A DNA stretch of 50,068 bases, from assembly GCA_964449845.1 (NCBI GenBank), contig CAYVES010000004.1, positions 1-50,068 of the forward strand, given 5' to 3'. The stretch is from an uncultured Dehalococcoidia bacterium (GTDB taxonomy: Bacteria > Chloroflexota > Dehalococcoidia > SZUA-161). Of the stretch, positions 24,651 to 41,500 are shown one piece after another. Made by a program: the position numbers and the translations under genes. Position 1 is the first letter of the stretch. Every line of letters starts with the position of its first letter. The notes beneath the pieces were generated by a model. That model saw only the letters and a program-made list of their open reading frames with translations, made no database searches and had not been told where the DNA came from.

Positions 24651-25244
24651 GTGGAGAGGACCAGGCGGATAGCCGAGATAGGAAAGGAGACGGCTGCCCT
24701 GCTCCAACACTTCGACGAGGCTCACGTCCAGATGAGCACCCGGCTCAAGGCACAACTGGCGAAAGAGAAGCAGGGGATTACTAGGGCCGAGATGGAGAGG
24801 AAGAAGGCATGTCAGGCCGACGCAAAGGCGAGAGCGGAAGAGGCAGAGGAGAGGGCAGATGAGGTCATTAGCATCCGCTCTGAGGCTAGAGACCTTGTAG
24901 AAAGCTTCAGCAAAGATTCGGCTGAGGCCGCGGCTGCCTGGCGGGACCTGGTGGCCGCCATGCAGGCCAGAAGGGGCATGGCAGCAGGGCCCCGTCCGGC
25001 TAGGCCGCCCGTCGCTGAAGCAATAGAGGAAGAGATGCCAATGGAGGAGGTCGTCCCGGAGGAAAAGCAGAAGCTGCAGAACAGGATACTCGACTTAATC
25101 ATGGAGCACGCGGAGGGAATAAAGCTCGCCCAGATGACAGAAGCTACGGGAGAGGCAAGGGTGAAGCTGGGCAATATCACCCGGATGCTGCTCGACGAGG
25201 GCAAGATCAGGAAAGAGGGCCTGCTCTATTTCCTGGCTGAATAG
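24576..25244 (+). CDS. Coiled-coil protein with a C-terminal winged-helix-like domain
   Basis: 222 aa. It has a long charged helical region, a Pro/Ala linker, then LQNRILDLIMEHAEGIKLAQMTEATGEARVKLGNITRMLLDEGKIRKEGLLYFL, a wHTH-like pattern. Confidence 0.68.
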   Translation: MSRASDVRSLTQDIAQAHDDRAQEQVERTRRIAEIGKETAALLQHFDEAHVQMSTRLKAQLAKEKQGITRAEMERKKACQADAKARAEEAEERADEVISIRSEARDLVESFSKDSAEAAAAWRDLVAAMQARRGMAAGPRPARPPVAEAIEEEMPMEEVVPEEKQKLQNRILDLIMEHAEGIKLAQMTEATGEARVKLGNITRMLLDEGKIRKEGLLYFLAE

Positions 25245-25273
25245 GCCATTGAGAGACTTTGCTCTTCAATGGC
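25245..25273 (+). terminator. Hairpin immediately after the stop codon (weak terminator or processing-site candidate)
   Basis: GCCATTGAGAG-actttg-CTCT(T)CAATGGC. There is no adjacent U-tract; GGTTTTTCC lies 13 nt downstream. Confidence 0.3.
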
Positions 25274-25330
25274 AAACCTATAGCGGTTTTTCCCTTCGCA
25301 ACGAACAGCGATGAGGAAGGAAGACGCAAT

Positions 25331-25729
25331 ATGGCCGAAGCAGAGGTAATGGAAAAGAGTGGCGACCGGGTTGGCATCAAGTGTGGCTTCTGTCACGGAA
25401 CAGGGAAGGACCCTTTCGGGCTCCTGTCTACACTTGCTGCCTGTCAGGTATGCGGAGGCAGGGGCAGGGTCACCGTCATCGAACCGGTAGTCAAGTGGGC
25501 CTTTTGTCACGGGAGTGGGGTGTAACCCTCCCGTAGATTGACGTGCACTGTGTATAGTGGCAAGGGGGTTGTCCCCACCCCCGCTGAGGGTGAAAGGGAG
25601 GTCTGCCCCGAGTGTGGGGGCAGGGGCAAGACCCGTGGCTACTTGAATGGCCCCTGCCTCAAGTGCAAGGGCAGGGGCTTCATAGTTGCCAAGAAACTGA
25701 AAGGAGGCGATCAAATATGGCGATGGTAG
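25331..25729 (+). pseudogene. DnaJ-type zinc-finger (CxxCxGxG) protein interrupted by an in-frame TAA; possibly decaying paralog of 28161-28526
   Basis: CGFCHGTGK and CQVCGGRGR are intact. WAFCHGSG has W where C is expected. TAA at 25526 is in frame. CTVYSGKG has Y where C is expected. CPECGGRGK and CLKCKGRG are intact. Both halves are in the same frame, and the 3' end overlaps the gvpN start. Confidence 0.55.
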
Positions 25730-26637
25730 AGGAGATGACCACCGTCCTGGAGCCGAGGCCGCTCCAGAATTTCGTCGAGACCAAGGCGGTAACGGATATA
25801 ACCGACCGCGCCCTGACCTATGCCGCCGCCGGATTCCCCGTCCACTTCAGGGGGACAACGGGAACGGGAAAGACAACCCTGGCCATGCATGTGGCCTCCA
25901 AGATCGGGCGGCCGGTGGTGATGATCCACGGTGATGAGGAGTTCAGCACCTCGGACCTGGTAGGTGGAGAACATGGCTACCACCGCAGGAAGGTTATCGA
26001 CAACTTCATCCACTCGGTGCTCAAAACCGAGGAGGATATGAGCAAGAAATGGATCGATGACCGCCTCACCGTAGCCTGCCGCTATGGATTTACCCTCATC
26101 TACGATGAGTTCACCAGGTCCCGCCCCGAGGCAAACAACGTGCTCCTCTCCGTGCTTCAGGAGAAGATGATGGACCTGCCCTCGTCGAGGGGAGTGGAGG
26201 AGAGCTACCTCAAGGTTCACCCCGATTTCACCGCCCTGTTCACCTCCAATCCCGAGGAGTATGCTGGCGTTTATCGAAGTCAGGATGCCCTCCGTGACCG
26301 CATGGTAACCATTGACCTCGATTTCTTTGATAAGGAAACGGAGATCGCCATCACCGAAGCCAAGTCCGGTATATCCCGGCGTGAGGCGGAGAAGATCGTA
26401 AGCATCGTTCGGGATCTGAGGGAATCGGGGAAATGCGAGTTTGCCCCCACCGTCCGCGGCTGCATCATGATCGCCAGGTCGCTGAAGCTTAAGGGTGTCC
26501 CTGCCAGTGCCAAGAACGGGCTCTTCGCCCAGATGTGCCAGGATATCCTGGCCTCGGAGACGAGCCGGGTGGGCAGCAAGAGCAGTCAAGAGAAAGTCAA
26601 GGAGGCCGTCAGGGAGCTGGTACCCAAGTATTGTTAA
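25717..26637 (+). CDS. gvpN: Gas vesicle AAA+ ATPase GvpN
   Basis: 306 aa from the ATG after GAAAGGAGG. Contains FVETKAVTDITDRALTYAAAGFPVHFRGTTGTGKTTLAMHVA (Walker A) and LIYDEFTRSRPEANNVLLSVLQE (Walker B and sensor region), typical of GvpN. Confidence 0.93.
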   Translation: MAMVEEMTTVLEPRPLQNFVETKAVTDITDRALTYAAAGFPVHFRGTTGTGKTTLAMHVASKIGRPVVMIHGDEEFSTSDLVGGEHGYHRRKVIDNFIHSVLKTEEDMSKKWIDDRLTVACRYGFTLIYDEFTRSRPEANNVLLSVLQEKMMDLPSSRGVEESYLKVHPDFTALFTSNPEEYAGVYRSQDALRDRMVTIDLDFFDKETEIAITEAKSGISRREAEKIVSIVRDLRESGKCEFAPTVRGCIMIARSLKLKGVPASAKNGLFAQMCQDILASETSRVGSKSSQEKVKEAVRELVPKYC

Positions 26638-27942: not shown

Positions 27943-28155
27943 ATGCCAAGCGGGACTGAAGCAGATGCCCTGAAAAGGATCAGTGAGGCTGGAGGGAGGA
28001 TCGATGTGAGAGCACTGGCTCGCAAAATGGGTCGCAACACCTCCTACATGAACACCATCTGCCGTTCTCTGGGGAAAGCCGATTACATCGATTACCTCGC
28101 CTCCGGGATGTGCGTTATCACCGCTATGGGCGAAGAAGCGGTGAAGGGCAGTTAG
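27943..28155 (+). CDS. Small winged-helix-like protein
   Basis: 70 aa: LKRISEAGGRIDVRALARKMGRNTSYMNTICRSLGKADYIDYLASGMCVITAMGEEAV. This resembles a MarR/ArsR-like wHTH core. RBS GGAGGGAG. Confidence 0.5.
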   Translation: MPSGTEADALKRISEAGGRIDVRALARKMGRNTSYMNTICRSLGKADYIDYLASGMCVITAMGEEAVKGS

Positions 28156-28160
28156 GGAAA

Positions 28161-28526
28161 ATGGCAAAGCGAGTGGTTGAATGCGTCTATTGCAAGGGGA
28201 AAGGGAAACGCAGCTATCTTGAAAAAGGGGTCGGGGTTGCTCTTCGCGGAGAACCGACTTATGAGTTCGTGTGCCCGGTGTGTTCTGGCAGGCGAAAGGT
28301 AGAGGTGGAGGAGCCAGCGAGAACTTGCGGCTTCTGCGGGGGGACGGGGCTATCAAAGCAGGGCAGTCTGGCTACCTGCCCTGTGTGCAAGGGTAAGGGT
28401 ATGGTCACGGTAATAGAGCCGGTCAGTCAGTGTCCTGCTTGCCGCGGACGGGGAAGGAAGCCCGGGAGCCCCCTTTACTGTATTAGATGTAAAGGCACCG
28501 GTTTCATAACCACAGTCAGGGTATGA
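28161..28526 (+). CDS. DnaJ-type zinc-finger protein (about five CxxCxGxG-type units, one degenerate), no J domain
   Basis: 121 aa from the internal ATG. Units: CVYCKGKGK, CPVCSGRRK, CGFCGGTGL, CPVCKGKGM, CPACRGRGR and CIRCKGTGF. Confidence 0.8.
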   Translation: MAKRVVECVYCKGKGKRSYLEKGVGVALRGEPTYEFVCPVCSGRRKVEVEEPARTCGFCGGTGLSKQGSLATCPVCKGKGMVTVIEPVSQCPACRGRGRKPGSPLYCIRCKGTGFITTVRV

Positions 28527-28551: not shown

Positions 28552-29565
28552 GTGAGCAACTATATCTACGGCGTGATTCAAACCAAGAAGGGGAAGAACT
28601 TCGGCCCCATCGGGATCGGCGGTGGGGATGAAGTTTATACCATCCTCTACCTGGACCTGGCAGCGGTGGTAAGCGATTCATTACCCGCTGCGCTCACTAC
28701 TCTCCCCAAGGAGGAGGTAGTGCGCTACCTCTTTGCTCACCAAGCCGTCATTGAGAAGGTGATGAAAGAGCATACTATTATTCCCCTCAAGTTCGGGACC
28801 ACTGTCGGCAGCGCTGAAGAGGTGAAAGAGATTTTAGAGAAGGCCTATCCTAAGTTCAAAGATGCCCTCGAAGCTATGGCGGGCAAGGTGGAGTTCGATG
28901 TGGTTGTTACCTGGAATAAGGACTCTGTGTTCAAGGACATCTCGCAGGAGGAGGAAATCATAAGGTTCAAGCAAAGCCTCGGCCCCCAGCCCTCGGCAGA
29001 AGATAAGGTGAAGCTGGGGCGAATGGTCGAAGACTTTCTAGGCAAGAGGAAAGAGACGCTTGCCCCAGAGATAACCGCTGCCTTAGCCGAAGTCGCTGAG
29101 GATTTCTGCCCCCACGATACCCTGGACGCCACCATGATTATTAACACCGCATTTTTGATCCGAAAAGACAAGCAGGAGGCCTTTGACCAGAAGCTTGACG
29201 AGATAGACTGCAAATATGATGGCGGCTTGAATTTCAGGCGGGTGGGGCCCCTACCACCCTATAGCTTCAGCACCGTTGAGGTCAAGAAGGCTGAGTTTGG
29301 AGAGATTGGAAGGGCAAGAAAGATACTGGGCTTGAGCCAGGAGGCTACGCAGTCCCAGATTAAGGAGGCTTACTGGAATCTGTCCTCGGAGTATCATCCC
29401 GACAAGCACCCGGGTGATGTGGCAATCCGAAAGAGGTTTGAGGATGTTTCCTGGGCCTATGAGCTTCTCACTGAATACTGCGGAGGAGAGAGGTTCTCTT
29501 TTCGAGAAAAGGATGCCAGGGCCTTTGTTAAGGTAGACCTGGTCGGAATCGGAAGAAGAGGGTAG
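28552..29565 (+). CDS. GvpF/GvpL-family protein fused to a C-terminal J domain (HPD motif present)
   Basis: N-terminal NYIYGVIQTKKGKNFGPIGIGGGDEVYTILYLDLAAVVSD...IPLKFGT is GvpF/L. C-terminal ARKILGLSQEATQSQIKEAYWNLSSEYHPDKHPGDVAIRKRFEDVSWAYELL is a J domain. GTG start. Confidence 0.88.
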   Translation: MSNYIYGVIQTKKGKNFGPIGIGGGDEVYTILYLDLAAVVSDSLPAALTTLPKEEVVRYLFAHQAVIEKVMKEHTIIPLKFGTTVGSAEEVKEILEKAYPKFKDALEAMAGKVEFDVVVTWNKDSVFKDISQEEEIIRFKQSLGPQPSAEDKVKLGRMVEDFLGKRKETLAPEITAALAEVAEDFCPHDTLDATMIINTAFLIRKDKQEAFDQKLDEIDCKYDGGLNFRRVGPLPPYSFSTVEVKKAEFGEIGRARKILGLSQEATQSQIKEAYWNLSSEYHPDKHPGDVAIRKRFEDVSWAYELLTEYCGGERFSFREKDARAFVKVDLVGIGRRG

Positions 29566-29570
29566 CTGAA

Positions 29571-30323
29571 GTGGCTGAGGAAGGTAAATACCTCTACTGC
29601 ATTATCGCAAACAACGAAGGAAGAAACTTCGGTCCACTTGGCATCGGCGGGAGAGGTGATCCGGTTACCACCATCTCCTACAATGACCTCAGTGGGGTCA
29701 TCAGCGACGCCCCGATAAAGGAGTATGCCACCACCAGGGCGAATACCATCGCTCATGAGAAAGCTATCGAGAAAGTGATGAGCGAGGGGAATGCCGTCCT
29801 CCCGGTGAGATTCGGCACTGTGGCCGATAGCGCTCAGGAAGTGCGGGACATTCTGCGCAAGAGAGACCGGGAATTCAAAGACCTGCTCCGCGATATGGAC
29901 AACAAGGTCGAACTGGGGGTGAAGGCGCTCTGGCTTGATATGGACGCTATCTTTAACGAGATCATAGAGGAAAGTGGCGACATCAGAGTGTTGAGAAACA
30001 GGGCTGCCCGCAAGCCAACTCGAGATAGCATGATTCGGGTGGGGGAGCTGGTCAAGGAGGCCTTGGAGGAGAAGAAGGAAAGGGAGGCAGCCTCAATACT
30101 TCAGCCCCTGAACAAGATCGCCCCCGATTCCAAGGTCAATAAGCCCTTCGGCGATAGAATGTTCCTCAATGCCGCCTTCCTGGTTGACAAAGGCTGGGGA
30201 AAACAATTCGACAATGAAATCGAAACCCTGACGATGAAGTATGCCCAGAGGGCGAAGATCACCTATGTTGGGCCTGCCCCGCCCTTCAACTTCGTCAACA
30301 TAGTAATCCACTGGGAAAGATAA
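29571..30323 (+). CDS. gvpF: Gas vesicle protein GvpF/GvpL family
   Basis: 250 aa: KYLYCIIANNEGRNFGPLGIGGRGDPVTTISYNDLSGVISD...VLPVRFGTV...FNFVNI. GTG start, 5 nt after the previous stop. Confidence 0.88.
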   Translation: MAEEGKYLYCIIANNEGRNFGPLGIGGRGDPVTTISYNDLSGVISDAPIKEYATTRANTIAHEKAIEKVMSEGNAVLPVRFGTVADSAQEVRDILRKRDREFKDLLRDMDNKVELGVKALWLDMDAIFNEIIEESGDIRVLRNRAARKPTRDSMIRVGELVKEALEEKKEREAASILQPLNKIAPDSKVNKPFGDRMFLNAAFLVDKGWGKQFDNEIETLTMKYAQRAKITYVGPAPPFNFVNIVIHWER

Positions 30324-30324
30324 G

Positions 30325-30561
30325 ATGCCCATTCTAACAACCTACCTAATCTTCAAGGGTCTTCGAGGCATTGCCGGGAAGATTCGCGATATGGCTGAGG
30401 AGGAATACTACGGGGAGGACAGGATAAAGCAGCAGCTTCTGGAACTCCAGATGAGGTTGGAGATGGATGAGCTAACCGAGGAGGAGTATCTGAAAGCGGA
30501 AGCTGCCCTGATGGGAAGGTTGGAGGAAGGTCGCCAACGCGGCGTTCAAGGAGCAGTATGA
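30325..30561 (+). CDS. gvpG: Gas vesicle protein GvpG
   Basis: 78 aa: GIAGKIRDMAEEEYYGEDRIKQQLLELQMRLEMDELTEEEYLKAEAALMGRLEE, the characteristic GvpG helix pattern. Confidence 0.88.
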   Translation: MPILTTYLIFKGLRGIAGKIRDMAEEEYYGEDRIKQQLLELQMRLEMDELTEEEYLKAEAALMGRLEEGRQRGVQGAV

Positions 30562-32525
30562 TGGCCGCCTTTCTGGCCAACCCATACCTCAAGCTCATAA
30601 TCTTCGGCGGCAAGGGAGGGAGCGGCAAGACAACCTCGGCTGCGGCTGCTGCCCTCCATTTCCGTAAGCTCGACCCCGAAAAGAGGATACTGGTTATGTC
30701 CACCGACCCCGCCCACTCCCTCGGCGACAGCTTCGACATCGCTATCGGCAACAGGGTTACCCCCATAAAGGAGACCGTCTGGGGGCTGGAAGTAGACTCT
30801 AATGAGCTGTTTGAGGAATACAAAGCCAAGCACGGAGACGCGATGAAGAAGATAGCCGACCGGGGGACCTATTTTGACCAGGATGATATCGAGGACTTCT
30901 TCACCAAGACCCTCCCTGGTTTGGATGAGGTTATGGCTGTCATTCGCATCGCCGACCTGCTTAAAGCCGGGGAATATGACCTGATTATTCTGGATACCGC
31001 CCCCACCGGGCACACCCTGGTCCTCCTTTCCCTGCCTGAGGAGATGGAGAAATGGATTCATCTCATGGATATGCTCATGCAGAAACATCGCTATATGATG
31101 AGAAGGCTGGTCGGCAGATACAAAAGGGACGAGTGTGACGAGTTCATCGACAGCCAGCAAAAGGATATCAGCAGGGTGAGACAGCTCCTCAGCGATGCCA
31201 CAGCAAGCGAGTTTGTTCCGGTTACCATCCCAGAGCCGATGAGCATCGCCGAAACAGAAAGAGCCGTCAAGGCTTTGAAGGAGCACAACATTGCGGTCAA
31301 CAGCATCATCGTCAACCGGGTTATCGAGGAGCAGCGGGAGTGTTCCTTCTGCTCGGTGAGGTGGGCGGAGAAGGAAAAGTATGTGCGGGAGATTGAGCAG
31401 AAGTTCGCTCATTACAATCTGGTCAAGATGCCCCTCTTCCCCTACCAGATCCGGGGCGAGAGCTTGACCGAGTATGCCCAGGTACTCTTCGGGGAGAGAG
31501 AATATGCCCCTCCCCCCAGGGCGGAGGTCTTGCCCCAAGCCCCTCCCCTGCCCAAAGGGGGGTTCTCCGATATTCTGGAGAAGGAGCTTAGCTTCCTCAT
31601 CTTCGGGGGCAAGGGAGGGGTGGGCAAGACCTCAATTGCCGCCGCCAGCGCCCTCCATTTAGCCCGACATAAGCCGGATAGGAAGGTCCTCGCCTTCTCC
31701 ACCGACTCCGCCCATGCCCTCTCCGACAGCTTCGAGCAGCGTATTGGCAACCAAATCACCCCGATTTCGGGTATCGATAATCTCTACGCCCTGGAGATTG
31801 ATGGCACCCAGATGCTGGAGGACTTCAAGCAGGAGTATCGAGATGACATAGATGAAGCCTTTCAGAGGTTTCTCGGCACCCACATGGACATGAAGTTTGA
31901 CCGGGAGGTTCTTAAAGAGTTCTTGGCTGTCTCTCCCCCGGGCCTTGATGAGCTCATGTCTTTGCAAGAGATTACGGGTCTCATGAAGGAAGGAGACTAC
32001 AGCCTCTTTGTCCTCGACTCAGCAGCCTCGGGGCACCTGATTCGTTTTCTGGAACTCCCCCATCTGATGAGGGAGTGGCTGAAGAGCGTCTTCAGGCTGC
32101 TCATCAAGTATAGGGGGATGGTGAAGCTGAACAGGGCTACGGAGCGCCTTCTGAGCCTATCCCGGGATTTGAGAAAGATATTGGAGGTTCTCTCCGATCC
32201 CCGAGGAACGGAGTTTGTGATGATCACCATCCCTGAGGAGATGGGGGTGGCGGAGATGGAGGACCTGTCAGAATCTTTAGCCAACCTTAGAATCCCCTGC
32301 TCTCATGTAGTCATTAACATGATAATCCCTCCCACCGACTGTGGTTTCTGTGCTGCCAAGAGAAAAGAGCAGCAGGGCTATATCCAGGAAATCGAGGCAA
32401 AACTGCCTCATCACACCATCGTTCCCATACCTTTACTCCCCCATGATATCAGGGGGGTAGAGCACTTGAGCGAACTTGCCGAGATTATGTACGGGAAGGC
32501 GATGGTGAGCGCTAAGAGATCTTAG
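30558..32525 (+). CDS. Tandem (pseudo-dimeric) ArsA/Get3/TRC40-family ATPase
   Basis: 655 aa. Two P-loops (GGKGGSGKTT, GGKGGVGKTS), two STD(P/S)AH(S/A)L motifs and two switch motifs (LDTAPTGHTL, LDSAASGHLI). Each half carries a CxxC followed by a Get3-like helix (CSFCSVRWAEKEKYVREIE, CGFCAAKRKEQQGYIQEIE). The first half has a Met-rich segment, MEKWIHLMDMLMQKHRYMMRRL. ATGA overlap with the gvpG stop. Confidence 0.88.
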   Translation: MMAAFLANPYLKLIIFGGKGGSGKTTSAAAAALHFRKLDPEKRILVMSTDPAHSLGDSFDIAIGNRVTPIKETVWGLEVDSNELFEEYKAKHGDAMKKIADRGTYFDQDDIEDFFTKTLPGLDEVMAVIRIADLLKAGEYDLIILDTAPTGHTLVLLSLPEEMEKWIHLMDMLMQKHRYMMRRLVGRYKRDECDEFIDSQQKDISRVRQLLSDATASEFVPVTIPEPMSIAETERAVKALKEHNIAVNSIIVNRVIEEQRECSFCSVRWAEKEKYVREIEQKFAHYNLVKMPLFPYQIRGESLTEYAQVLFGEREYAPPPRAEVLPQAPPLPKGGFSDILEKELSFLIFGGKGGVGKTSIAAASALHLARHKPDRKVLAFSTDSAHALSDSFEQRIGNQITPISGIDNLYALEIDGTQMLEDFKQEYRDDIDEAFQRFLGTHMDMKFDREVLKEFLAVSPPGLDELMSLQEITGLMKEGDYSLFVLDSAASGHLIRFLELPHLMREWLKSVFRLLIKYRGMVKLNRATERLLSLSRDLRKILEVLSDPRGTEFVMITIPEEMGVAEMEDLSESLANLRIPCSHVVINMIIPPTDCGFCAAKRKEQQGYIQEIEAKLPHHTIVPIPLLPHDIRGVEHLSELAEIMYGKAMVSAKRS

Positions 32526-32551: not shown

Positions 32552-32926
32552 ATGGCGCTAACGGCGGAAAAGGACTCAGGCGGAACCCTGGCTGATGTCA
32601 TCGACCGGGTTCTGGACAAAGGGCTGGTAATTAACGCCGACATCACCGTGTCTCTGGCTGGGGTGGAGCTATTGGGCATTAAGATAAGGGCAGCCCTGGC
32701 TTCTTTTGAGACGGCAGCCAAGTATGGCCTGGAGTTTCCCTCGGGGACAAATTATGAGACCGCTGCCTGGCAGGAGGCTACAGTTGCCAAAGAGGAATGT
32801 CCCCAGTGTGAGAAGAGGGTGCACCTGGATGAACTCCTCAACGAGGGGTGCCCGTGGTGCGGCTGGGTCAGCGCCAAGGCCAAGGCAATCCGCGCCAAGG
32901 CAACTCCAGAGATGGAAGCCCGCTAA
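32552..32926 (+). CDS. gvpJ: GvpA/GvpJ-family protein with C-terminal zinc ribbon
   Basis: TLADVIDRVLDKGLVINADITVSLAGVELLGIKIRAALASFETAAKYG is the GvpA/J core. CPQCEKRVHLDELLNEGCPWCGW follows. Confidence 0.85.
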   Translation: MALTAEKDSGGTLADVIDRVLDKGLVINADITVSLAGVELLGIKIRAALASFETAAKYGLEFPSGTNYETAAWQEATVAKEECPQCEKRVHLDELLNEGCPWCGWVSAKAKAIRAKATPEMEAR

Positions 32927-32938
32927 GTTAGGAGCAGG

Positions 32939-33280
32939 ATGCTTTTTGAACCGACAATCCTGAAGGAAATCCATAAAGAGGCCAAGCGAGAACAAAAGAG
33001 GTCGATGGAGAAAGAAAAGACCTCTGCCTACTGGGTGAGGTGCCCCGCCTGTGGAAGGAAGGTGGCAAAAAGGCAGATTCTGACCCAAGGCTGCTGGGTT
33101 TGCGGTTGGAAGGGAACTCAGAAGGAACTCGAGCTTGCCAGATCAAAGAGAGCCAACGGGCAGAAGACCAAGACTGCCGCTGAGACGAGTTATAAGACCA
33201 GGTGTCCGGGGTGTGGTAGGCCGGTGATTACACAAGAGTTGAGAGAGAAAGGGTGCTATATCTGCGGCTGGAAGGGTTAA
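32939..33280 (+). CDS. Double zinc-ribbon protein (two copies of the CPxCG...GCxxCGW module)
   Basis: 113 aa. CPACGRKVAKRQILTQGCWVCGWKG and CPGCGRPVITQELREKGCYICGWKG. Confidence 0.7.
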   Translation: MLFEPTILKEIHKEAKREQKRSMEKEKTSAYWVRCPACGRKVAKRQILTQGCWVCGWKGTQKELELARSKRANGQKTKTAAETSYKTRCPGCGRPVITQELREKGCYICGWKG

Positions 33281-33284
33281 TAGG

Positions 33285-34061
33285 ATGATCAGAAGCTCAT
33301 GGCCCAAGGGCCACAACTCTCATGCCGAAGAAGCAGTTCGGAAGCTGACCCCTTTCATGCCGCAAAACCTCAGACTCGATATACTCGCCTCCTTGTGGGA
33401 AGAATACGGGGACGAGGGGCAACTGGCCAGGGAAGTCGGCTGTAAGCCCGCCCTGATGGACAAATGGCTGAGGGCAGGGGAACCACCGAGCGACAAATAC
33501 ACGCCGCAAATCCTTTTCCTCGCCCTGCAACGCTCTTCCAGGGTAAGGGAAATACTGCGGGCGGAGGTACTGGAGCAAATCGAGGACATCTTCGCTGAGA
33601 TCGATGTTTTTCATGAAGAGAAAACCGACGCGGACCTGGGTAGGGTTCTGGATATTGTGGATGAGAAGAGCCGGCAGATACTGTGGTATCTATGGTGGGG
33701 CAGGCATGCCGAGATTGGCGAACTGGTTGAGCTAACGAAGGCAGACTCGGATATGGACATCCTGTCTCGAATAAGGGACGTCATAAACCCCGCTGCTCGA
33801 CTTGCTCTGGGTAGGGAGATAGTGAAGTTCGAAAGCTCCAGGATCGACCCGGTAACCGGGGAGAGGGTCCTCTCTAGCTGGTGGCTGGAGGAGGGCTCAC
33901 TATTTGGGAGAAGGAGAGCGCCCCTGGTGGATGTCTTTGAGGAGGATGGGCATGTAGCCATAATTGCCCAGCTACCTGCCTCACTGGAGTTAGCCAGTGA
34001 GGCGCAGGTAGTGAGCAAGGATGGTGTCTTGAGGATCAGGGTGGAGAAGATCAAGGGTTAA
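33285..34061 (+). CDS. Protein with C-terminal alpha-crystallin (Hsp20)-like segment; possible HTH near the N-terminus
   Basis: 258 aa. C-terminal PLVDVFEEDGHVAIIAQLPASLELASEAQVVSKDGVLRIRVEKI parallels the ACD start of 34139 and 40805. N-terminal GQLAREVGCKPALMDKWLRAGEPP is HTH-like. Confidence 0.6.
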   Translation: MIRSSWPKGHNSHAEEAVRKLTPFMPQNLRLDILASLWEEYGDEGQLAREVGCKPALMDKWLRAGEPPSDKYTPQILFLALQRSSRVREILRAEVLEQIEDIFAEIDVFHEEKTDADLGRVLDIVDEKSRQILWYLWWGRHAEIGELVELTKADSDMDILSRIRDVINPAARLALGREIVKFESSRIDPVTGERVLSSWWLEEGSLFGRRRAPLVDVFEEDGHVAIIAQLPASLELASEAQVVSKDGVLRIRVEKIKG

Positions 34062-34138: not shown

Positions 34139-34813
34139 ATGGCTGAGAAGAAGGAACGGGAAGACAAGATAAGGGAGCTTGAGAAAAAGATCGAGAGGCT
34201 GGAGGAACAACTGGAAAGGCGCAGGCGAGGTGGGGCGGCCGGCAGCGTGCTCCGTGGACTGGGCGATGTTATACCCGGGCTGGGCAGGATGCTCGAGGGG
34301 CTGGAGGATTCGGAGGCTTTCCAGGAAAGGCTGGACGCCATCAACAAGGAGGTTGATAAGAGGCTCAGGGAAACACCGCTTGAGAGGGTGGAAGGAGGAG
34401 GTAGTGATATCGGGATTGCCAAAGGAAGAATACCTAGAAGGGGCTCTATCCCTAATGTGGCGAAAGGTTTCTCAATAAGGAGCTTGGCCCCGGAGAAACC
34501 CGCCTTTGAAGTGAAGGGAGAGAAGCCCCGGCCCAAAAGGCAGAGAGCGGCAGAACCCCGGCCTAGCATAGAGAGAGAGGTCCTGGTGGACGTCTTCGAA
34601 GAGGATAATCACCTGAAGATAATCGCCGAGATCCCGGGAGTGCAAGAAGGGGACATATTGGTCGAGTCTAAGGGAAATGCCGTGCTTATATCCGTTGATA
34701 CCCCTCAGCGCAAGTATCACAAAGAGGTGGCATTGCCCTGCCCGGTTAAGGGGGGACCCAAGACATCTTACAAAAACGGCATCCTGGAAATCGAACTGGA
34801 GAAAGAGGGCTGA
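34139..34813 (+). CDS. Small heat-shock (alpha-crystallin domain) protein with N-terminal coiled coil
   Basis: 224 aa. VLVDVFEEDNHLKIIAEIPGVQEGDILVESKGNAVLISVDTPQRKYHKEVALPCPVKGGPKTSYKNGILEIELEKE is a typical Hsp20 ACD. Confidence 0.8.
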   Translation: MAEKKEREDKIRELEKKIERLEEQLERRRRGGAAGSVLRGLGDVIPGLGRMLEGLEDSEAFQERLDAINKEVDKRLRETPLERVEGGGSDIGIAKGRIPRRGSIPNVAKGFSIRSLAPEKPAFEVKGEKPRPKRQRAAEPRPSIEREVLVDVFEEDNHLKIIAEIPGVQEGDILVESKGNAVLISVDTPQRKYHKEVALPCPVKGGPKTSYKNGILEIELEKEG

Positions 34814-34815
34814 GC

Positions 34816-35142
34816 ATGCCACTTGATATCGATGAGGGCAATCTGAAGCATGGTGTGTTGGGACTGGTCATTGCGCTGGTGGAGATAATCAGGGATACCC
34901 TCAGGATCGAAGCCTTCCGGAGAATGGACGGCGGAAGCCTAGCAGATGAGGAATGTGAGCGGCTGGGAGAAGCACTGCTCGACCTGGATATGGCTATCGA
35001 GGAGATAAAAGAGGAGCAGGGCATCACCGAGGCAGTTCAGCAGGTGAGGGATGGCCTGGATGACATCGCGAGGGAAGTGGTTGACAGAATGGCAAACCCG
35101 GTGAGATGGGAGGAGGAAGCCGAAAGGCAAGGGGTGTGCTAG
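34816..35142 (+). CDS. gvpK: Gas vesicle protein GvpK
   Basis: 108 aa: GVLGLVIALVEIIRDTLRIEAFRRMDGGSLADEECERLGEALLDLDMAIEEI, the characteristic GvpK block. Confidence 0.9.
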   Translation: MPLDIDEGNLKHGVLGLVIALVEIIRDTLRIEAFRRMDGGSLADEECERLGEALLDLDMAIEEIKEEQGITEAVQQVRDGLDDIAREVVDRMANPVRWEEEAERQGVC

Positions 35143-36219
35143 ATGGAAAAGGATCTGAGAGCAAGAAAAGCAATAGAGCAGCTGGTGAGGCAAGAGGTAC
35201 AGAGAATAGCCTCTGAAACCAAGGACCTGTTGAGGGAGATGGTGAGAGCCACCCTACTGCCCGAGCTCAGGGCAGCTATTCAAGATTCTATCTCCGAGGT
35301 GGTGCAGGAGGCGTTGAGTGAGGAGATACTACCAGTCCGTGAAGCCGATATATTTGAGGAAGTTTCAGGGGTTGAAGCTGCTTTCCCGGAAGAGGAAGTA
35401 GGGGAGATGCCGGATGCCGAGGGAGAGCCGGCCTTGGAGGAGGCCAGGGGCACCAAAAATGGGAGCGGCAGGTATGCATATTGCGTCGCCGATTCCGGGG
35501 AAATGGTCAACCTGGGACAGATAGGAATTGAAAACAGTGAAGTCTACACTATTCCCTACAACGGCTTGTGCGCTGTCGTCCATAACTGCTCCACAGAGCC
35601 CTATAAGTCAGAGGATGAGGAAGTGGTCAAGGGCTGGGTGCAGATCCACCAGAAGGTCCTCGATGTGGCTATGGAAAGGTTTGCCACCGTGCTTCCCCTC
35701 GGCTTCGACACGATAATAAAAAGCGAAGATGAAGTCGAGCCCGATCAGGTGGTGAAGGACTGGCTTAAGGATGATTTCGAGAATCTCAGGGAGAAGATGG
35801 ACCGCGTCAGGGGAAATCAGGAGTTCGGCATCCAGGTATTCTATGATCCCAAGGTGATGGGGGAAGTGATTGCCCGGGAGAGCGAGGAGATTCAGAAACT
35901 GCAAGTGGAGATGGCGTCTCAGAAGCCGGGGATGGCCTATATGTATAAGCAGAAGGTGGAGAAGGCGGTGAAAGAGGAAATGGAGAGGAGGGCAGAACAG
36001 AGCTTTAAGGATCTTTACCAGGCAATCAGAAATCAGGTTGATGACATCAAGGTGGAGAAGGTCAAAAGAGACAGGGATAAGACGATGCTTATGAATCTAT
36101 CCTGCCTGGTATTAAAGGAGAAGGTGGAGGACCTGGGCAATGTACTGGAGGGGATTGACAACATGGATGGCTTCTCAGTCCGCTTCACCGGGCCCTGGGC
36201 TTCTCATAGCTTTGTCTAG
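35143..36219 (+). CDS. gvpL: Gas vesicle protein GvpL/GvpF family with an acidic N-terminal extension
   Basis: 358 aa. GRYAYCVADSGEMVNLGQIGIENSEVYTIPYNGLCAVVHN...VLPLGFDTII...FTGPWA. The ATG directly abuts the gvpK stop. Confidence 0.85.
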   Translation: MEKDLRARKAIEQLVRQEVQRIASETKDLLREMVRATLLPELRAAIQDSISEVVQEALSEEILPVREADIFEEVSGVEAAFPEEEVGEMPDAEGEPALEEARGTKNGSGRYAYCVADSGEMVNLGQIGIENSEVYTIPYNGLCAVVHNCSTEPYKSEDEEVVKGWVQIHQKVLDVAMERFATVLPLGFDTIIKSEDEVEPDQVVKDWLKDDFENLREKMDRVRGNQEFGIQVFYDPKVMGEVIARESEEIQKLQVEMASQKPGMAYMYKQKVEKAVKEEMERRAEQSFKDLYQAIRNQVDDIKVEKVKRDRDKTMLMNLSCLVLKEKVEDLGNVLEGIDNMDGFSVRFTGPWASHSFV

Positions 36220-36220
36220 G

Positions 36221-36392
36221 GTGACAAGGGTTCAGGGCCTCGGAATGGCACATTCCAGGTGTCATTGCGAGGAGTGATAGCGACGCGGCACTCTAGGGCG
36301 TGGTAGGGAGGGATAGAACGATGAGATTGCTTCGCTTCGCTCGCAATGACCAGGGGGTGTGGGGCTCAGAATGACAAAGGAGAAGGGGCAAG
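36221..36392. repeat. REP/MITE-like GC-rich palindromic element, copy A
   Basis: ...ggcacattccaggtgtCATTGCGAGgagtgatagcgacgcggca...gggagggatagaacgatgagattgcttcgcttcgCTCGCAATGaccag... Inverted CATTGCGAG/CTCGCAATG arms are present. About 170 nt align to 36813-36995. Confidence 0.8.
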
Positions 36393-36393
36393 G

Positions 36394-36741
36394 ATGAGAG
36401 AGTTCCTGCGAGAGGGAGAACAGACTATCATGTCCACTCCGGGAGCCATTGATATCGGCACCCTTGACGCCCTGTGGAGAATGGGGAATCTCCACCTCAC
36501 CGATAAACGGGTGTTTTTTGAGCGCCAGGGGAAAATCCAGTTTGCCTCCTTCCTCGAGGATGTGGTGGATGTCAGGCTGGAGATGAGGAAATGGATACTG
36601 CAGCATATCAGGCAGCTTTGCATATCCTACCGAACCACACCCGATGGCCGTGTCCGGGTGGCATATGTCGCCGTCAGGTCGCCTGTGGGCTGGCAGAAGG
36701 CAATCAAGGATAGGATGACTTTCGCCTTGATAGGGACCTAG
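36394..36741 (+). CDS. Stand-alone PH/GRAM-like domain protein
   Basis: 115 aa from the ATG at 36394; upstream codons of the track ORF lie in the REP element. MGNLHLTDKRVFFERQGKIQFASFLEDVVDV resembles the two PH/GRAM-like modules of 37020-38132. Confidence 0.6.
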   Translation: MREFLREGEQTIMSTPGAIDIGTLDALWRMGNLHLTDKRVFFERQGKIQFASFLEDVVDVRLEMRKWILQHIRQLCISYRTTPDGRVRVAYVAVRSPVGWQKAIKDRMTFALIGT

Positions 36742-37019: not shown

Positions 37020-38132
37020 GTGGGAATGCAACCTACGGCGGCAACGGAATGTGGTGTAACCGATCTCTTAGAGAGGATTCTAGACAAGGGGCTGGTAATC
37101 CATGCCGACCTCATAGTCTCCCTGGCAGGGGTTCCTCTTGTCGGGGTTACTCTAAAGGCAGCCATAGCCGGGATGGAGACAATGCTGAAGTATGGCATGT
37201 TGACCGATTGGGATGAAAAGACCCGCGACTGGGCTCGAACGGAGCGGGAGGAATCTCGAAAAGCGAGCGGGGTCTTGAAAGACGGTGAAGAGGTTCTGAT
37301 CAGGATGTTCGGCTCCCACTGGTACAGCCGGGGCATCTACCGCAACTGGAGGCCGGGGCATCTCTACGTCACCGATAGGAGGCTTCTACTGTGGAGACCC
37401 TATCCCGGCGAGGTATTAACGGAGGTTCACTACGAGCTAATAAAAGGAATGGCTGTGGAGAGAAGGATAAATGTCGCCAAGAAGGAAACGGATTACCTTT
37501 ATATATTGCTCAAGGATGGCGAGGTGGTTCAACTCCATCCCACCGATGCTTCGGTGGTAAGAGAGGCTATTGAAAACAGGATGCAAACGCTGGGACTGCA
37601 ACTGGAGAGTTACCCAGCTATCCCGCCCGTTGATGAGGGGGCAGCCAGGTTCTTGACCCCTGGCGAGCAAGTTACCCACTGCGGCAGGATGTGGCACCTC
37701 GTGACCCAGCCCTCCCCGGGCGGAATCACCAGCGAGAAGTGGAAGCCGGGACACCTGTATCTAACCAACGAGAGGCTGTACTGGTATCACGACTTCGACG
37801 GCAAGGTGGACTGGGAAGCCCCCCGTGACAGCCTGGTTCATGCCACTGCTCAGTTAAAGAATCTCGGGGGTATGCTGAAGGAGAAGCAGGTCCTCAGTGT
37901 GCTGCACAAGACCGGGTCAGGTAACAGGGTAGCATGCTTCTCTGGCGTGCCGGTGGAGATGAAGGACTGGGAGGATGCCCTAGTAGATGTCATCAGGCAG
38001 CGCAGCGAACCCATGCCTGAGGACTGGGAACAGTGCCCCCAGTGCGGGGAGAAAGCGCCCCGAGAGAGGCTGGTAAAAGATGGCTGCCCGGTGTGCGGCT
38101 GGGTAAGCCCCAGGCTGACGCGAAGAGTCTAG
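37020..38132 (+). CDS. GvpA/GvpJ-family domain fused to two PH/GRAM-like domains and a C-terminal zinc ribbon
   Basis: 370 aa. VTDLLERILDKGLVIHADLIVSLAGVPLVGVTLKAAIAGMETMLKYGM is the GvpA-family core. WRPGHLYVTDRRLLLW and WKPGHLYLTNERLYWY mark two PH/GRAM-like modules. CPQCGEKAPRERLVKDGCPVCGW closes it. The start may be the ATG at 37026. Confidence 0.83.
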   Translation: MGMQPTAATECGVTDLLERILDKGLVIHADLIVSLAGVPLVGVTLKAAIAGMETMLKYGMLTDWDEKTRDWARTEREESRKASGVLKDGEEVLIRMFGSHWYSRGIYRNWRPGHLYVTDRRLLLWRPYPGEVLTEVHYELIKGMAVERRINVAKKETDYLYILLKDGEVVQLHPTDASVVREAIENRMQTLGLQLESYPAIPPVDEGAARFLTPGEQVTHCGRMWHLVTQPSPGGITSEKWKPGHLYLTNERLYWYHDFDGKVDWEAPRDSLVHATAQLKNLGGMLKEKQVLSVLHKTGSGNRVACFSGVPVEMKDWEDALVDVIRQRSEPMPEDWEQCPQCGEKAPRERLVKDGCPVCGWVSPRLTRRV

Positions 38133-38142: not shown

Positions 38143-38421
38143 GTGAGCAAAATGTCTCTGACGACGGTTCAGGTAGTAGACCGGGCTAAGAAGCAGCTAA
38201 GCGAGCTCATAGAGAGGAAGCCATCAGGTGTGACTGCGGTTCACAAGGATGATGGGGGGTGGCATGTCTCGCTGGAGATGCTGGAGAAGAAGTCTATCCC
38301 CGATGGCATGGATTTGCTTGCCGAGTATGAGGTCGTGCTTGATGATGACGGGAATATACTGAAGTTTGACCGGGGTGACCTGCGCACCCGCAGCGAGGCG
38401 ACAAAACATGAAGAGGAATAG
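38143..38421 (+). CDS. gvpO: Gas vesicle protein GvpO
   Basis: 92 aa: VVDRAKKQLSELIERKPSGVTAVHKDDGGWHVSLEMLEKKSIPDGMDLLAEYEVVLDDDGNILKFDRGDLRTR matches the GvpO pattern (W.V.vE..E...iP...D.la.YEv.lD..G.l..f.R). RBS AAAGGAGG. Confidence 0.8.
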   Translation: MSKMSLTTVQVVDRAKKQLSELIERKPSGVTAVHKDDGGWHVSLEMLEKKSIPDGMDLLAEYEVVLDDDGNILKFDRGDLRTRSEATKHEEE

Positions 38422-38487: not shown

Positions 38488-38727
38488 TTGACAGAGATGG
38501 CAGAAGAGAAGACGACAGCAGTGACGGGTCCGTTTCACTGCCCTATGTGTCTAGCCACCACCTCGGGGAGGCATGCCTTTTGCCCTGAGTGTGGCGAGCC
38601 CCTGGATATGCAGTGTCCCAACTGCGGACTTACCTGGCGATTCTATATCAAGCATACCTTTTGCCCTTCCTGCGGACAAAGGGTTCCGGCAAAAGCTGGA
38701 CTGACCACAGCTAAAGGCTGGGGCTAG
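38488..38727 (+). CDS. Small double zinc-ribbon protein
   Basis: 79 aa. CPMC...CPEC...CPNC...CPSC gives four CxxC pairs. The start is TTG at 38488 or ATG at 38497. Confidence 0.58.
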   Translation: MTEMAEEKTTAVTGPFHCPMCLATTSGRHAFCPECGEPLDMQCPNCGLTWRFYIKHTFCPSCGQRVPAKAGLTTAKGWG

Positions 38728-38757: not shown

Positions 38758-40503
38758 ATGGCTAGAGTCATAGGGATTGATTTGGGTACTACCAACTCGG
38801 TAGCTGCCTTTATAGAGAATCGCAAGCCAAAGGTCATCCCCAATGCCGAGGGTGGTCGGCTGACCCCTTCTGTAGTGGCGTTGACCGCAGATGGGAGGCG
38901 GCTGGTGGGGCAACTGGCAAAGAGGCAGGCCGTAGCCAACCCCGAGAAAACCGTTGTCTCCATGAAGAGGCGAATGGGCTCTGACTTCAGGGTGAGGCTT
39001 GGCCGAAAGGAGTACACGCCTCAAGAGGTCTCAAGCCTTATCTTGGGTAAGATCAAAGCCGATGTCGAAAGCTACCTGGTGGAGAGGGTGGAAAAGGCGG
39101 TGATCACCGTTCCTGCCTATTTCAATGACTCTCAGCGTCAAGCCACCAAAGATGCTGGGACCATCGCTGGGTTGGATGTACTCAGGATTATTAACGAACC
39201 CACGGCCGCTGCCTTGGCCTATGGGTTGGATAAGCAGGACGCCCATAATATCCTGGTCTGGGACCTTGGCGGCGGCACGTTCGATGTCTCCATCCTGGAG
39301 CTGGGCAGGGGAATGTTTGAGGTCAAGGCGGTAAGTGGCAACACCTGGCTGGGGGGGGATGACTGGGACCAGCGTATCGTGGATTATCTGGCTGGCGAGT
39401 TCCAGAGACAGCACGGCATCGACTTGCGAGAAGACAGGATAGCCCTGCAGCGGCTGAGGGAGGCCGTGGAGAAAGCCAAGATCGAGCTTTCAAACAGCCA
39501 GGTTGCCTCCATCAAACTGACGTTTATCCTCAGTAACAACCATGATGCCGAACATCTGGATATGACACTGACCAGGGAAAGGTTCGAGGAGCTAACAGAG
39601 GATTTGCTTCAGAAGATGATTGGGCCCACCAAGCAAGCTTTGGCCGATGCCAAACTCGAGCCTGAAGATATCGATAGGGTAGTTCTGGTAGGCGGAGCTA
39701 CCAGGATGACGGCGGTGCAGCAGCTATGCCGAGCGCTCTTGCGTAAGGAGCCTTACAAGGACATCGATCCCGATGAGGTGGTGGCTATGGGCGCCGCCAT
39801 TCAAGCCGGGATGCTAAGCGGTGAACTGGAAAAGGTAACATTGCTCGATGTTACCCCCCTCTCTCTGGGCATTGAGACCAGGGGCGGGATTTTTGCCAGG
39901 ATTATTGAAAGGAATGCCAAAATTCCTACCTCCACAAGCCAGGTATTTTCCACGGCTTTCGACAACCAGCCTGAGGTGGATATTCATGTGCTGCAGGGAG
40001 AGAGGGAGATGGCTTGTTACAACATGAGCCTGGGCAGATTTCAGCTCACCGATATCCCCCTTGCTCCCCGAGGAGTGCCCCGCGTCGAGGTCGTCTTTAG
40101 TATCGACGTTAACGGCATTCTCCAGGTGTCTGCCACAGACCTATATACCGAAAATGAAGCCAGATTAAGGATTCAGTCCTCCAGGCTATCACCTGAGGAC
40201 ATCGGACGGATGATCGAAGAAGCTAAGGTCTATGCTGAGGAGGACAAGAGGCGGCGCGAAGAGGTAGAGATAGGTATTAGAGCCGACAACCTCATCTATG
40301 CTGCTGAAAAGATGGTGGAGCAGACAGGGGATAGATTGGATGACACCCAGCTTGCGGAAACAGAGGCAAAGGTATTAGCGGTGAAGTCCGCTCTAGCCAG
40401 TGGAGATACTGAGGAGATCAGGTTAAGAACTGAAGACCTACAAGAAGTGGTCCGGGAGTTATACACGGAGAAGGAGGAGCTTACCAGTGCAAGGGCGACT
40501 TGA
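38758..40503 (+). CDS. Hsp70 (DnaK-family) chaperone, compact 581-aa form
   Basis: [72 protein letters not shown] and a full beta-sandwich SBD ([13 protein letters not shown]...[19 protein letters not shown]). The helical lid is short. Confidence 0.95.
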
Positions 40504-40804: not shown

Positions 40805-41500
40805 ATGGAGAATAGACGTATCAGGGGATTGCGATTAGAGCTTGGTCTGTCTCAGGAGAGGTTTGCTCGGCTCGTTGGCGTCTCACTGCAAACGGTGCGA
40901 CGGTGGGAGGAAGGCTTAACCAGACCTCTGCCTGTCTTGAGTCTCAAGCTGGAGGAGCTACAAAGAAATTCCGGAGGTGTTGGAATGGGTGAGGAGGAAA
41001 AGAAGAAAGTGGAAGGAACTGTGGATATTGGTTTCGGTGGCCTGTTCAAGGGACTCGGCAGCCTGTTTGACCTCGTCTCCAGGATGGCTGAGGAGGGGAA
41101 AGATGAATATACCCGCACCGGGGAGATTACGGGCCTGGGCGACAAGGCTAAGGGAGTATATGGCTTTAGCGTAAAGATGGGGCTGGGAGGAAAGCCGACT
41201 ATAGAACAGTTCGGCAATATCAAGGCAACCGAGAGGGGGCCGGTGGTGGCGGAGGTCAGGGAGCCTATAGTTGATGTCTTCGATGAGGGGGAGAGATTGG
41301 TAGTGATCGCTGAACTTCCTGGTGTGGACGAGGACGACATCCACCTTGAGGTGAAAGATGACATTATCGATCTGGCTGCGGAAGCAAAGGACAGGAAGTA
41401 CAGTAAGGAGATTCTACTTCCCTCGGCAGTGGATGCCGATTCTATGCAATCTACCTACAAGAACGGGATTCTGGAGATAACGTTCAAGAAGAAGCAATAA
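40805..41500 (+). CDS. XRE-type HTH domain fused to an alpha-crystallin (Hsp20) domain
   Basis: N-terminal IRGLRLELGLSQERFARLVGVSLQTVRRWEEG is an HTH_3 pattern. C-terminal PIVDVFDEGERLVVIAELPGVDEDDIHLEVKDDIIDLAAEAKDRKYSKEILLPSAVDADSMQSTYKNGILEITFKK is an ACD. Confidence 0.83.
   Translation: MENRRIRGLRLELGLSQERFARLVGVSLQTVRRWEEGLTRPLPVLSLKLEELQRNSGGVGMGEEEKKKVEGTVDIGFGGLFKGLGSLFDLVSRMAEEGKDEYTRTGEITGLGDKAKGVYGFSVKMGLGGKPTIEQFGNIKATERGPVVAEVREPIVDVFDEGERLVVIAELPGVDEDDIHLEVKDDIIDLAAEAKDRKYSKEILLPSAVDADSMQSTYKNGILEITFKKKQ

Follow-up and report, generated by a model that had tools for sequence, protein, structure and literature searches.

We find that a small four-cysteine (Cys4) module, carried at the C-terminus of the gas vesicle protein GvpJ and repeated in neighbouring proteins, constitutes a specific family that is essentially confined to gas vesicle (Gvp) proteins and small free proteins. 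The module occurs in a gas vesicle (gvp) gene cluster of an uncultured Dehalococcoidia bacterium, within a stretch of 50,068 nucleotides (contig CAYVES010000004.1, positions 1 to 50,068; hereafter the window), and shuffling has spread it over at least five kinds of gas vesicle protein, the C-terminus of GvpJ being its primary and most conserved home. Judging from its sequence and predicted structure, the four invariant cysteines most probably hold one Zn(II), and we see about an even chance that the module serves as a metal-stabilised, cytoplasm-facing docking knob on nucleation/shell proteins for soluble assembly factors.

Four copies of the module in one gene cluster

When the whole window is translated in six frames, the pattern CP.C.{10,14}GC..CGW matches exactly four times, always on the + strand, and a looser pattern (C..C.{8,16}C..CG[WYF]) is likewise observed four times, whereas 200 trinucleotide shuffles of the window contain it 0.0 times on average. 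All four copies lie inside a complete gvp cluster (approximately 23.2-44.5 kb), the genes of which, as called from Pfam and NCBIfam scans, are all on the + strand, as is every other window feature located below. The first copy (J class; 32798-32866; CPQCEKRVHLDELLNEGCPWCGW) is found near the C-terminus of a 124-amino acid (aa) open reading frame (ORF) at 32552-32926, the second and third (free classes F1 and F2; 33041-33109, CPACGRKVAKRQILTQGCWVCGW, with a conserved YW just before it, and 33203-33271, CPGCGRPVITQELREKGCYICGW) both belong to a 113-aa ORF at 32939-33280, and the fourth (M class; 38034-38102; CPQCGEKAPRERLVKDGCPVCGW) is near the C-terminus of a 370-aa ORF at 37020-38132. A first-pass annotation of the window had reported a module of about 24 residues present four times in three proteins of the cluster, and its peptides and ORF coordinates are confirmed here. 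It had also drawn attention to a further protein with four CxxC pairs at 38488-38727. That ORF is present, but its 79-aa product is a double zinc ribbon protein (Pfam DZR, PF12773; 38.5 bits against a cutoff of 27.3) that lacks CxxCGW and is not a copy of the module; with homologues in 15 of 27 long related loci, it counts among the conserved proteins of the cluster.

The four repeats are paralogues of a single mini-domain some 30 residues long, characterised by a CPxC knuckle, a conserved L, a third Cys preceded by G, and CxxCG followed by an aromatic residue, with 13 residues between the two Cys pairs (CPxC-x13-CxxCGW). All four Cys are invariant in 60 aligned modules. The Trp after the last Cys-Gly had initially been taken as invariant too, and this holds for the GvpJ and GvpM classes only; in the second module of the free proteins the position is occupied by W, Y or F, and the preceding Gly is sometimes replaced by N, D, E or A. 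Sequence identity is 0.54-0.66 within classes, 0.43 between J and M, 0.41 between F1 and F2, and approximately 0.3 for the other pairs, such that the M class is nearer to the J class than to the free classes and is the nearest relative of the former. The module classes act as stable paralogues.

GvpJ and GvpM as carriers of the module

The 124-aa protein (hereafter GvpJ-ZnR; 32552-32926) is a minor shell protein of GvpJ-like type, the C-terminal part of which consists of a Cys4 module and a basic helical tail. It matches Pfam Gas_vesicle (PF00741) with 63.1 bits over residues 12-50 (gathering cutoff 25), and its residues 7-59 align to the GvpA structures 8GBS and 7R1C. The 370-aa protein (37020-38132) combines a GvpA-fold N-terminus, which scores 53.3 bits with PF00741 (cutoff 25) and aligns to the same two structures, with two PH-like repeats and a C-terminal module. 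The best NCBIfam models are halo_gas_GvpJ for the former (NF046090; 99 bits, under the curated cutoff of 125) and halo_gas_GvpM for the latter (NF046091; 84 bits over positions 1-67 of 67, under the cutoff of 109); since both scores fall under haloarchaea-specific 'exception' cutoffs, we label the proteins 'J-like' and 'M-like' and assign no subtype membership. Given that NCBIfam ranks the 124-aa protein nearest to GvpJ and the N-terminus of the 370-aa protein nearest to GvpM, the module sits on two minor GvpA paralogues and not on GvpA, which in this cluster is a canonical major shell protein of 68 aa without Cys (23235-23441; NCBIfam GvpA PRK09371, 120.7 bits, cutoff 100). GvpJ and GvpM are essential, low-abundance paralogues of GvpA, the candidates for their role or position in the shell being nucleation, cone tip and seam. 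Like canonical members of the A-J-M family, the window carriers possess an N-terminal GvpA-fold domain and are syntenic with gvpK, gvpL and gvpM, yet the reviewed GvpJ and GvpM proteins of Halobacterium, Bacillus and Serratia are described without a Cys4 domain or PH-like repeats (PMC9501494).

Conservation of GvpJ-ZnR is extreme. Full-length identity to the window protein, module included, is 75-94% in the best 120 database clusters, and within them the linker and the motif GCPWCGW-[VI]-SAK are nearly invariant; across 121 GvpJ-ZnR sequences C83, P84, C86, K88, L95, C100, P101, C103, W105 and S107 are invariant. The protein is acidic (pI 4.9) and occurs in Chloroflexota, Desulfobacterota, Bacteroidota, a Firmicute-like contig with sporulation genes, and an archaeon. 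Ratios of nonsynonymous to synonymous substitution (dN/dS) against orthologues are 0.06-0.18, and values of 0.06-0.25 at informative divergences indicate strong purifying selection. Precomputed Pfam annotation of 120 GvpJ-ZnR proteins consists of PF00741 alone, and public labels read just 'gas vesicle protein' or carry generic zinc-ribbon COG names.

GvpM-like orthologues are present in nearly all related loci, and most, although not all, bear the module. No PH-type Pfam model exceeds its cutoff on the 370-aa protein (PH 17.4 bits against 25.1, bPH_3 16.2 against 23, GRAM 14.1 against 23.6, Vps36 17.0 against 24.1), and the description of its repeats as PH-like consequently stays a lead. Upstream of this gene, a 131-aa ORF (36346-36741) contains the '…LHLTDKRVFF…'-type motif of the two repeats (GHLYVTDRRLLLW and GHLYLTNERLYWY) and seems to be the PH-like repeat in stand-alone form; all Pfam and NCBIfam models are sub-threshold on it.

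Distribution and specificity

An exhaustive search of 1.84 billion representative proteins with a 33-column hidden Markov model (HMM) of the module (E <= 1e-3) returned only 131 matches, approximately 110 of them with a clean module. The matches comprise 15 on a GvpJ/A-fold domain, 24 on GvpM-PH proteins or fragments thereof, 8 fragments with the GvpJ signature C.WCGW, 6 proteins with the module N-terminal to an Hsp20 domain, 1 with the module N-terminal to a GvpG domain, 13 free multi-module proteins with up to three copies, 41 single-module small proteins or fragments, and approximately 21 cases of cysteine-rich repeat noise; the sole match clearly outside gvp is a single unrelated multi-zinc-ribbon protein. 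These matches, being almost all Gvp-linked, argue against a ubiquitous generic zinc ribbon. The first-pass annotation had favoured a specific family over a generic ribbon and had suggested an HMM search as the means of deciding; run here on proteins, that search upholds its view, the clean matches being nearly all Gvp or small free proteins. Furthermore, a scan of one genome per species recovered 19 loci that encode the free protein (the class represented in the window by the 113-aa ORF), and all 19 are gvp clusters in which the gene directly upstream encodes a module-bearing GvpJ; most also encode a GvpM-like PH protein bearing the module. These loci belong to Dehalococcoidia, Anaerolineae, Desulfobacteraceae, Syntrophales, Ignavibacteria, Actinomycetota, Aerophobetes and Hakubella, and together with the window they hold 67 instances of the motif, every one in the GvpJ, GvpM-PH or free protein class.

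A GvpJ-anchored scan of metagenome contigs added 80 further loci, which were pooled with four GvpJ-anchored look-up loci (L020, L022, L024 and L025). Where at least 700 nt were available 3' of gvpJ, a free module gene is present in 26 of 61 loci, directly adjacent to gvpJ in 24 of the 26. Among 27 loci with a complete GvpM gene, the module is found on GvpJ and GvpM in 10, on GvpJ, the free protein and GvpM in 8, on GvpJ only in 8, and on GvpJ and the free protein in 1; examples with the module on GvpJ and GvpM and no free protein include a Mariniphaga metagenome-assembled genome (MAG; Bacteroidota), a Halobacteriota archaeon MAG and the contig with sporulation genes. The idea that every cluster needs at least two module-bearing proteins is rejected by this survey, GvpJ being the sole carrier in 8 of the 27 loci. 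Moreover, module classes from the same locus show no consistent covariation (J-M p=0.79, J-F1 p=0.21, J-F2 p=0.17), while the M-F1 effect is tiny and that of M-F2 runs in the opposite direction. The GvpJ-only and GvpJ-plus-GvpM loci and the lack of covariation thus speak against obligatory pairing of modules, and for a function that GvpJ-ZnR is able to perform alone. The earlier suggestion of a shared handle, with a free two-copy adaptor linking the shell paralogues, is therefore sustained in its tie to gvp genes (all 19 genome loci) and falls short as regards the adaptor, which is not general (26 of 61 loci). DNA sequencing runs containing the window sequence are salt-marsh and marine-sediment metagenomes.

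Predicted structure and relationship to known families

AlphaFold2 models of the 113-aa family and of 121 GvpJ-ZnR sequences agree in predicting each module as a strand, the CPxC knuckle, a second strand, a six-residue helix and the CxxC knuckle, with a predicted local distance difference test (pLDDT) score of 72-80 for the modules in both models. In GvpJ the module (pLDDT approximately 78-80) would have strands at residues 80-82 and 89-91 and a helix at 92-97, followed by the second knuckle and, beyond the module, a basic helix at 108-117. In the 113-aa model, charged helices lie between the two hairpin-helix-knuckle modules. Measured against the zinc ribbon fold, the predicted module carries its first knuckle on a hairpin, whereas the second comes after a short helix.

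Foldseek comparison of both models with the PDB gave nothing significant (best E 0.13). Local fits were found to the zinc ribbon of acetyl-CoA carboxylase beta (2f9i_B; root-mean-square deviation (rmsd) 1.6 A over 31 residues) and to NUP153 zinc fingers (rmsd 1.8 A over 30), with E values of 2.0 and approximately 6. Sequence and profile searches of the PDB returned GvpA structures for the N-terminal domains and otherwise only the first CPxCG knuckle of generic zinc proteins. The best-scoring curated families are Cys_rich_CPCC, DUF7560 and HVO_0416, all small Cys4 families of the CPxC ... CxxC-x-W-like kind, as is the module. Against Pfam Cys_rich_CPCC (PF14206) the 113-aa protein scores 26.0 bits with a cutoff of 24.5, matching only positions 2-39 of 75, the score for the GvpM copy is 13.8 bits and the copy on GvpJ is not matched, while PDB chains of the CPCC family (8EY3/8EY4) are met at E=1.1-2.6. 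Scores with Pfam DUF7560 (PF24441; 25.1, 16.9 and 13.8 bits) are below the cutoff of 27, that with the HVO_0416 family (NF041910 / PF28085) is 21.4 bits against a cutoff of 80, and the module carriers do not reach the Pfam DZR cutoff of 27.3 (113-aa protein 17.0 bits, 370-aa protein 16.9 bits). The RanBP2/NZF signature (W-x-C-x(2,4)-C-x3-N-x6-C-x2-C) is absent as well, the module lacking both a conserved Asn and a Trp ahead of the first Cys, with 13-residue spacing and a Trp after the last Cys. Consequently, with GvpJ and GvpM copies that match no curated family and a free protein that does so only marginally, the module is best described as a zinc-ribbon-like Cys4 domain without a curated home. 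It resembles generic C4 zinc ribbons (Rpo12/RpoP, eL43/L37ae, Nop10, YacG, acetyl-CoA carboxylase beta, RanBP2/NZF) in having two CxxC pairs with about 13 residues between them, a beta-hairpin that bears CPxCG, and a length of approximately 25-30 residues; unlike them, it has an inter-knuckle helix, the conserved L, the G before the third Cys, the aromatic residue after CxxCG, and a restriction to gas vesicle proteins.

The free basic protein and its Hsp20-like neighbours

The free protein encoded at 32939-33280 consists of 113 aa with two module copies (13 kDa, pI 9.8, 26 K+R). Its gene starts 12 nt past gvpJ-ZnR and stops 4 nt before the next gene, an AGGAG lies 7 nt 5' of the ATG at 32939, and dN/dS against orthologues is 0.20-0.51; both this gene and gvpJ-ZnR look real. 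The family is small, with only 27 relatives (clusters at 90% identity) in a collection of 5.8 billion proteins. These relatives all keep Y31, W32 and the first module's Cys and Gly, and the second module's Cys and Gly are almost invariant; free proteins occur with one, two or three modules. The nearest genome record, judged by this protein (90% identity), is an uncultured Dehalococcoidia MAG.

Two Hsp20-related genes follow. The first (33285-34061), which starts 4 nt past the stop of the 113-aa gene, encodes a 258-aa protein with an Hsp20-like C-terminus (no Pfam match, weak NCBIfam Hsp20) and is a candidate for the working partner of the free protein; the second (34139-34813) encodes an Hsp20/GvpH-like protein of 224 aa (NCBIfam archaeal Hsp20, 96 bits; Pfam HSP20 and ArsA_HSP20 weak). 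When accessory genes were counted within +/-10 kb in the 27 related loci of at least 14 kb, an Hsp20-like gene was present in all 27. In three further loci (L026, 2723-3683; L028, 7181-7935; L029, 288-1174) one gene directly 3' of gvpJ, in the position of the 258-aa gene, encodes a module together with Hsp20, and an examination of context places these fusions inside gvp clusters, immediately after gvpJ. These fusions link the free protein with the Hsp20-like chaperones encoded beside it. In the same three loci the tail of the GvpJ module, GCPWCGW[VI]SAK, has become GCPICGWxSPLK, the tail that the fused Hsp20 module also carries; the match may be due to transfer of the domain out of gvpJ into the adjacent gene, or else to co-adaptation. 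Of these loci, L028 and L029 have a GvpM without the module, and L026 does not cover the GvpM gene.

In Halobacterium salinarum the Hsp20-like GvpH keeps GvpM from aggregating and heterodimerises with the small basic protein GvpI (PMC9501494). The free protein is similarly small and basic (13 kDa and pI 9.8, as compared with 15.8 kDa and pI 10.8 for GvpI; PMC9501494), is encoded between gvpJ and Hsp20-like genes, and is fused to Hsp20 in some lineages. Unlike a true relative, it shows no detected homology to GvpI, and the likeness is one of analogy only. GvpI is not known to bind zinc. The free protein is best seen as an optional accessory, probably working with the neighbouring Hsp20-like holdases, and would thereby be a functional counterpart of GvpI.

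Possible functions of the module

We infer zinc binding, a cytoplasmic orientation, docking and a partnership with Hsp20-like proteins, and combine these in a proposal for how the module may work. As seen by cryo-electron microscopy, GvpA shells turn the beta-hairpin towards the gas and have the helices and the C-terminus pointing outward. Since the gas-facing side is a hydrophobic beta-sheet and the C-termini are outside, a hydrophilic knob at the C-terminus would have to face the cytoplasm. There it would mark the minor nucleation/shell proteins GvpJ and often GvpM, soluble assembly factors would recognise it as a docking handle, and the free basic protein would be an optional adaptor beside the Hsp20-like holdases. 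In Halobacterium, GvpJ and GvpM join an early nucleation complex (PMC9501494).

Several observations weigh against this docking role. AlphaFold2 confidence is only moderate within the modules and the remainder of both models is poor (mean pLDDT 57-63), so that the orientation of the module relative to the GvpA-fold core is not given by the models. The metal in these anaerobes could be Fe instead of Zn, and the three loci with an Hsp20 fusion may go back to one evolutionary event or lineage. Apart from the Hsp20-like gene no accessory gene is universal within +/-10 kb, CDC48 being present in 18, ArsA in 17 and DnaK in 15 of the 27 loci of at least 14 kb. Finally, a search for RNA sequencing runs holding the locus listed none.

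An alternative explanation, which we consider unlikely, is that the module has an intramolecular, structural role: as a bulky, metal-stabilised cap it would prevent GvpA-like polymerisation of GvpJ and GvpM, and thereby confine both to special positions (cone tips, seam) or keep them soluble before insertion; with Fe, it might instead be a rubredoxin-like redox switch. Among shell proteins the module is indeed carried only by minor paralogues and never by the 68-aa GvpA, GvpJ-ZnR is extremely conserved over its full length including the linker, and GvpJ is the sole bearer in 8 of the 27 loci with a complete GvpM gene. A cap would, however, leave unexplained the presence of the module on proteins that are soluble and do not polymerise, namely Hsp20, GvpG and the free basic protein. 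As for a redox switch, the CPxCG/CxxCG knuckles resemble those of rubredoxin, which the PDB profile search meets only at E=1.1, but the 13-residue spacing fits a zinc ribbon and not rubredoxin.

Homotypic bridging, the model put forward in the first-pass annotation, holds that modules bind each other and that the free protein cross-links GvpJ to GvpM, or GvpJ to GvpJ, so as to nucleate or staple the shell. Module-bearing shell paralogues and modules of the free protein both number exactly two in the window, 24 of the 26 loci with a free gene have it directly 3' of gvpJ, and one, two or three modules per free protein would suit a valency-tuned linker. Yet the pairing is not obligatory, as GvpJ alone (8 of 27 loci) or GvpJ and GvpM without a free protein (10 of 27) suffice in many clusters and the free gene is present in 26 of 61, and the J-M, J-F1 and J-F2 pairs do not covary within loci; a GvpJ that is the sole bearer could still self-associate through J-J contacts. 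On balance we regard bridging as rather improbable.

We attach a similarly low likelihood to a more elaborate version of recognition, in which the Cys4 knobs would be tags by which the ATP-driven machines of the cluster pick out minor shell proteins to be inserted into the wall of the gas vesicle or pulled out of it, the free tandem protein being a tuning adaptor or competitor. The machines reading such tags would be the CDC48-type unfoldase, the ArsA/Get3-like ATPase, DnaK with the GvpL-J-domain fusion, the Hsp20-like holdases and the DnaJ-type zinc-finger proteins. If true, this would amount to a tag-directed, chaperone-powered assembly or disassembly of gas vesicles, unlike that of model systems.

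Nucleic-acid binding, whereby the free protein would act as a regulator on gvp mRNA or DNA, with the GvpJ and GvpM copies incidental, seems to us improbable to a marked degree. The free protein is strongly basic, its weak best matches are RNA/DNA-associated zinc ribbons (Rpo12, L37ae/eL43, Nop10, YacG), and JGI automatic names of homologues are of the same RNA/DNA zinc-ribbon kind; but those matches cover the CPxCG knuckle only and are far under the family cutoffs, GvpJ-ZnR is an acidic shell protein, the module is fused to chaperone and structural Gvp proteins, and the cluster has regulators of its own, of OmpR type (22191-22952) and in the form of a helix-turn-helix (HTH)-Hsp20 fusion (40805-41500). 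Chance recurrence of a generic zinc ribbon unconnected with gas vesicles is rejected on the shuffle result and the profile-search distribution: zinc ribbons are ubiquitous and many Pfam zinc-ribbon models match weakly, but four copies were observed in the window where none were expected, the 131 matches in 1.84 billion proteins are almost all Gvp-linked, and the carriers are syntenic orthologues across several bacterial phyla and an archaeal MAG, which makes coincidence extremely improbable.

Novelty and significance

The gas-vesicle zinc-ribbon module appears to be undescribed. Within the literature library searched, we found no paper that joins gas vesicles with zinc ribbons and none on CDC48/Hsp70-containing gvp clusters of this type, in keeping with the remark in the first-pass annotation that zinc ribbons on GvpA-family proteins are not part of the textbook account. 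The only zinc element met in the gas vesicle literature is the zinc-finger motif in the C-terminal globular domain of haloarchaeal GvpC, an exterior protein (PMC9501494). What GvpC and the module would have in common is a putative zinc-binding element located on the outside of the gas vesicle (PMC9501494); the module differs in being carried by GvpA-fold proteins, no sequence relationship between the two was found, and these clusters have no recognisable GvpC.

In a large and phylogenetically broad group of uncultured anaerobes, GvpJ and GvpM thus bear a discrete, hydrophilic and probably metal-stabilised domain, which offers a natural handle or epitope for locating these two proteins by cryo-electron tomography or immunogold labelling, as well as a bait for binders. 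The shuffling of the module onto Hsp20-like and GvpG proteins, along with the CDC48, Get3-like, Hsp70 and J-domain genes, points to a chaperone-heavy route of assembly; these CDC48, Get3-like, Hsp70 and J-domain components are not known from classical model gvp clusters. Such a route is relevant to gas vesicles as acoustic reporters, the use of which is limited by heterologous assembly and proteotoxicity. There is also an annotation gap to be closed, GvpJ-ZnR now being filed as 'gas vesicle protein' or misnamed after zinc-ribbon COGs.

Cluster context

The cluster type is widespread and chaperone-rich, and belongs to uncultured sediment anaerobes and some archaea. It comprises gvpA/N/F/L/G/J/K/M/O and Hsp20-like genes, often with CDC48, ArsA/Get3-like, DnaK and DnaJ-type zinc-finger genes. 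Besides the genes already located, the window encodes GvpN (approximately 25711-26637; TIGR02640, 356 bits), GvpL/F (29571-30323 and 35143-36219), GvpG (30325-30561), GvpK (34816-35142) and GvpO (38143-38421). A third GvpL/F is fused to a C-terminal J-domain (28552-29565; Pfam DnaJ, 55 bits), and DnaK/Hsp70 is encoded at 38758-40503; the fusion and Hsp70 recur in related loci (e.g. L025 and L028), which suggests an Hsp70 system dedicated to gas vesicle assembly. The tandem ArsA/Get3-like ATPase (30558-32525; Pfam ArsA_ATPase, 479 bits) has a CxxC pair in each half (…ECSFCSV… and …DCGFCAA…) that recalls the zinc-bridging CxxC of Get3, and it may be a chaperone for hydrophobic Gvp proteins. The Xre-type HTH-Hsp20/GvpH-like protein (40805-41500; Pfam HTH_3 41 bits, HSP20 36.5 bits) is an unusual fusion of regulator and chaperone, with homologues in 20 of the 27 related loci. 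Downstream lie a CDC48-type double-AAA ATPase with CDC48_N and CDC48_2 domains (41683-43827) and a conserved 226-aa protein without a family match (43824-44504); the latter is found in 10 of the 27 related loci, and the pair of genes recurs in many gvp loci.

DnaJ-type CxxCxGxG zinc-finger proteins are encoded at 25259-25729 and 28110-28526. The frame of the former is interrupted by a TAA stop (25526-25528) and reopens at a TTG (25538); it could represent two small genes, a pseudogene or an assembly error; in an archaeal relative (L020) the equivalent consists of two adjacent small genes. Between gvpA and gvpN, three adjacent ORFs of 205, 77 and 222 aa (23676-25244) match no family. The 77- and 222-aa ORFs share an MSRASDVRS… N-terminus, and the 205- and 77-aa ORFs share the C-terminus …GRQDEVG[RK]MLDELWGVD.EVA.QWHKVMSSIRT. 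They look like recently duplicated or recombined coiled-coil genes, possibly for a GvpC-like outer protein.

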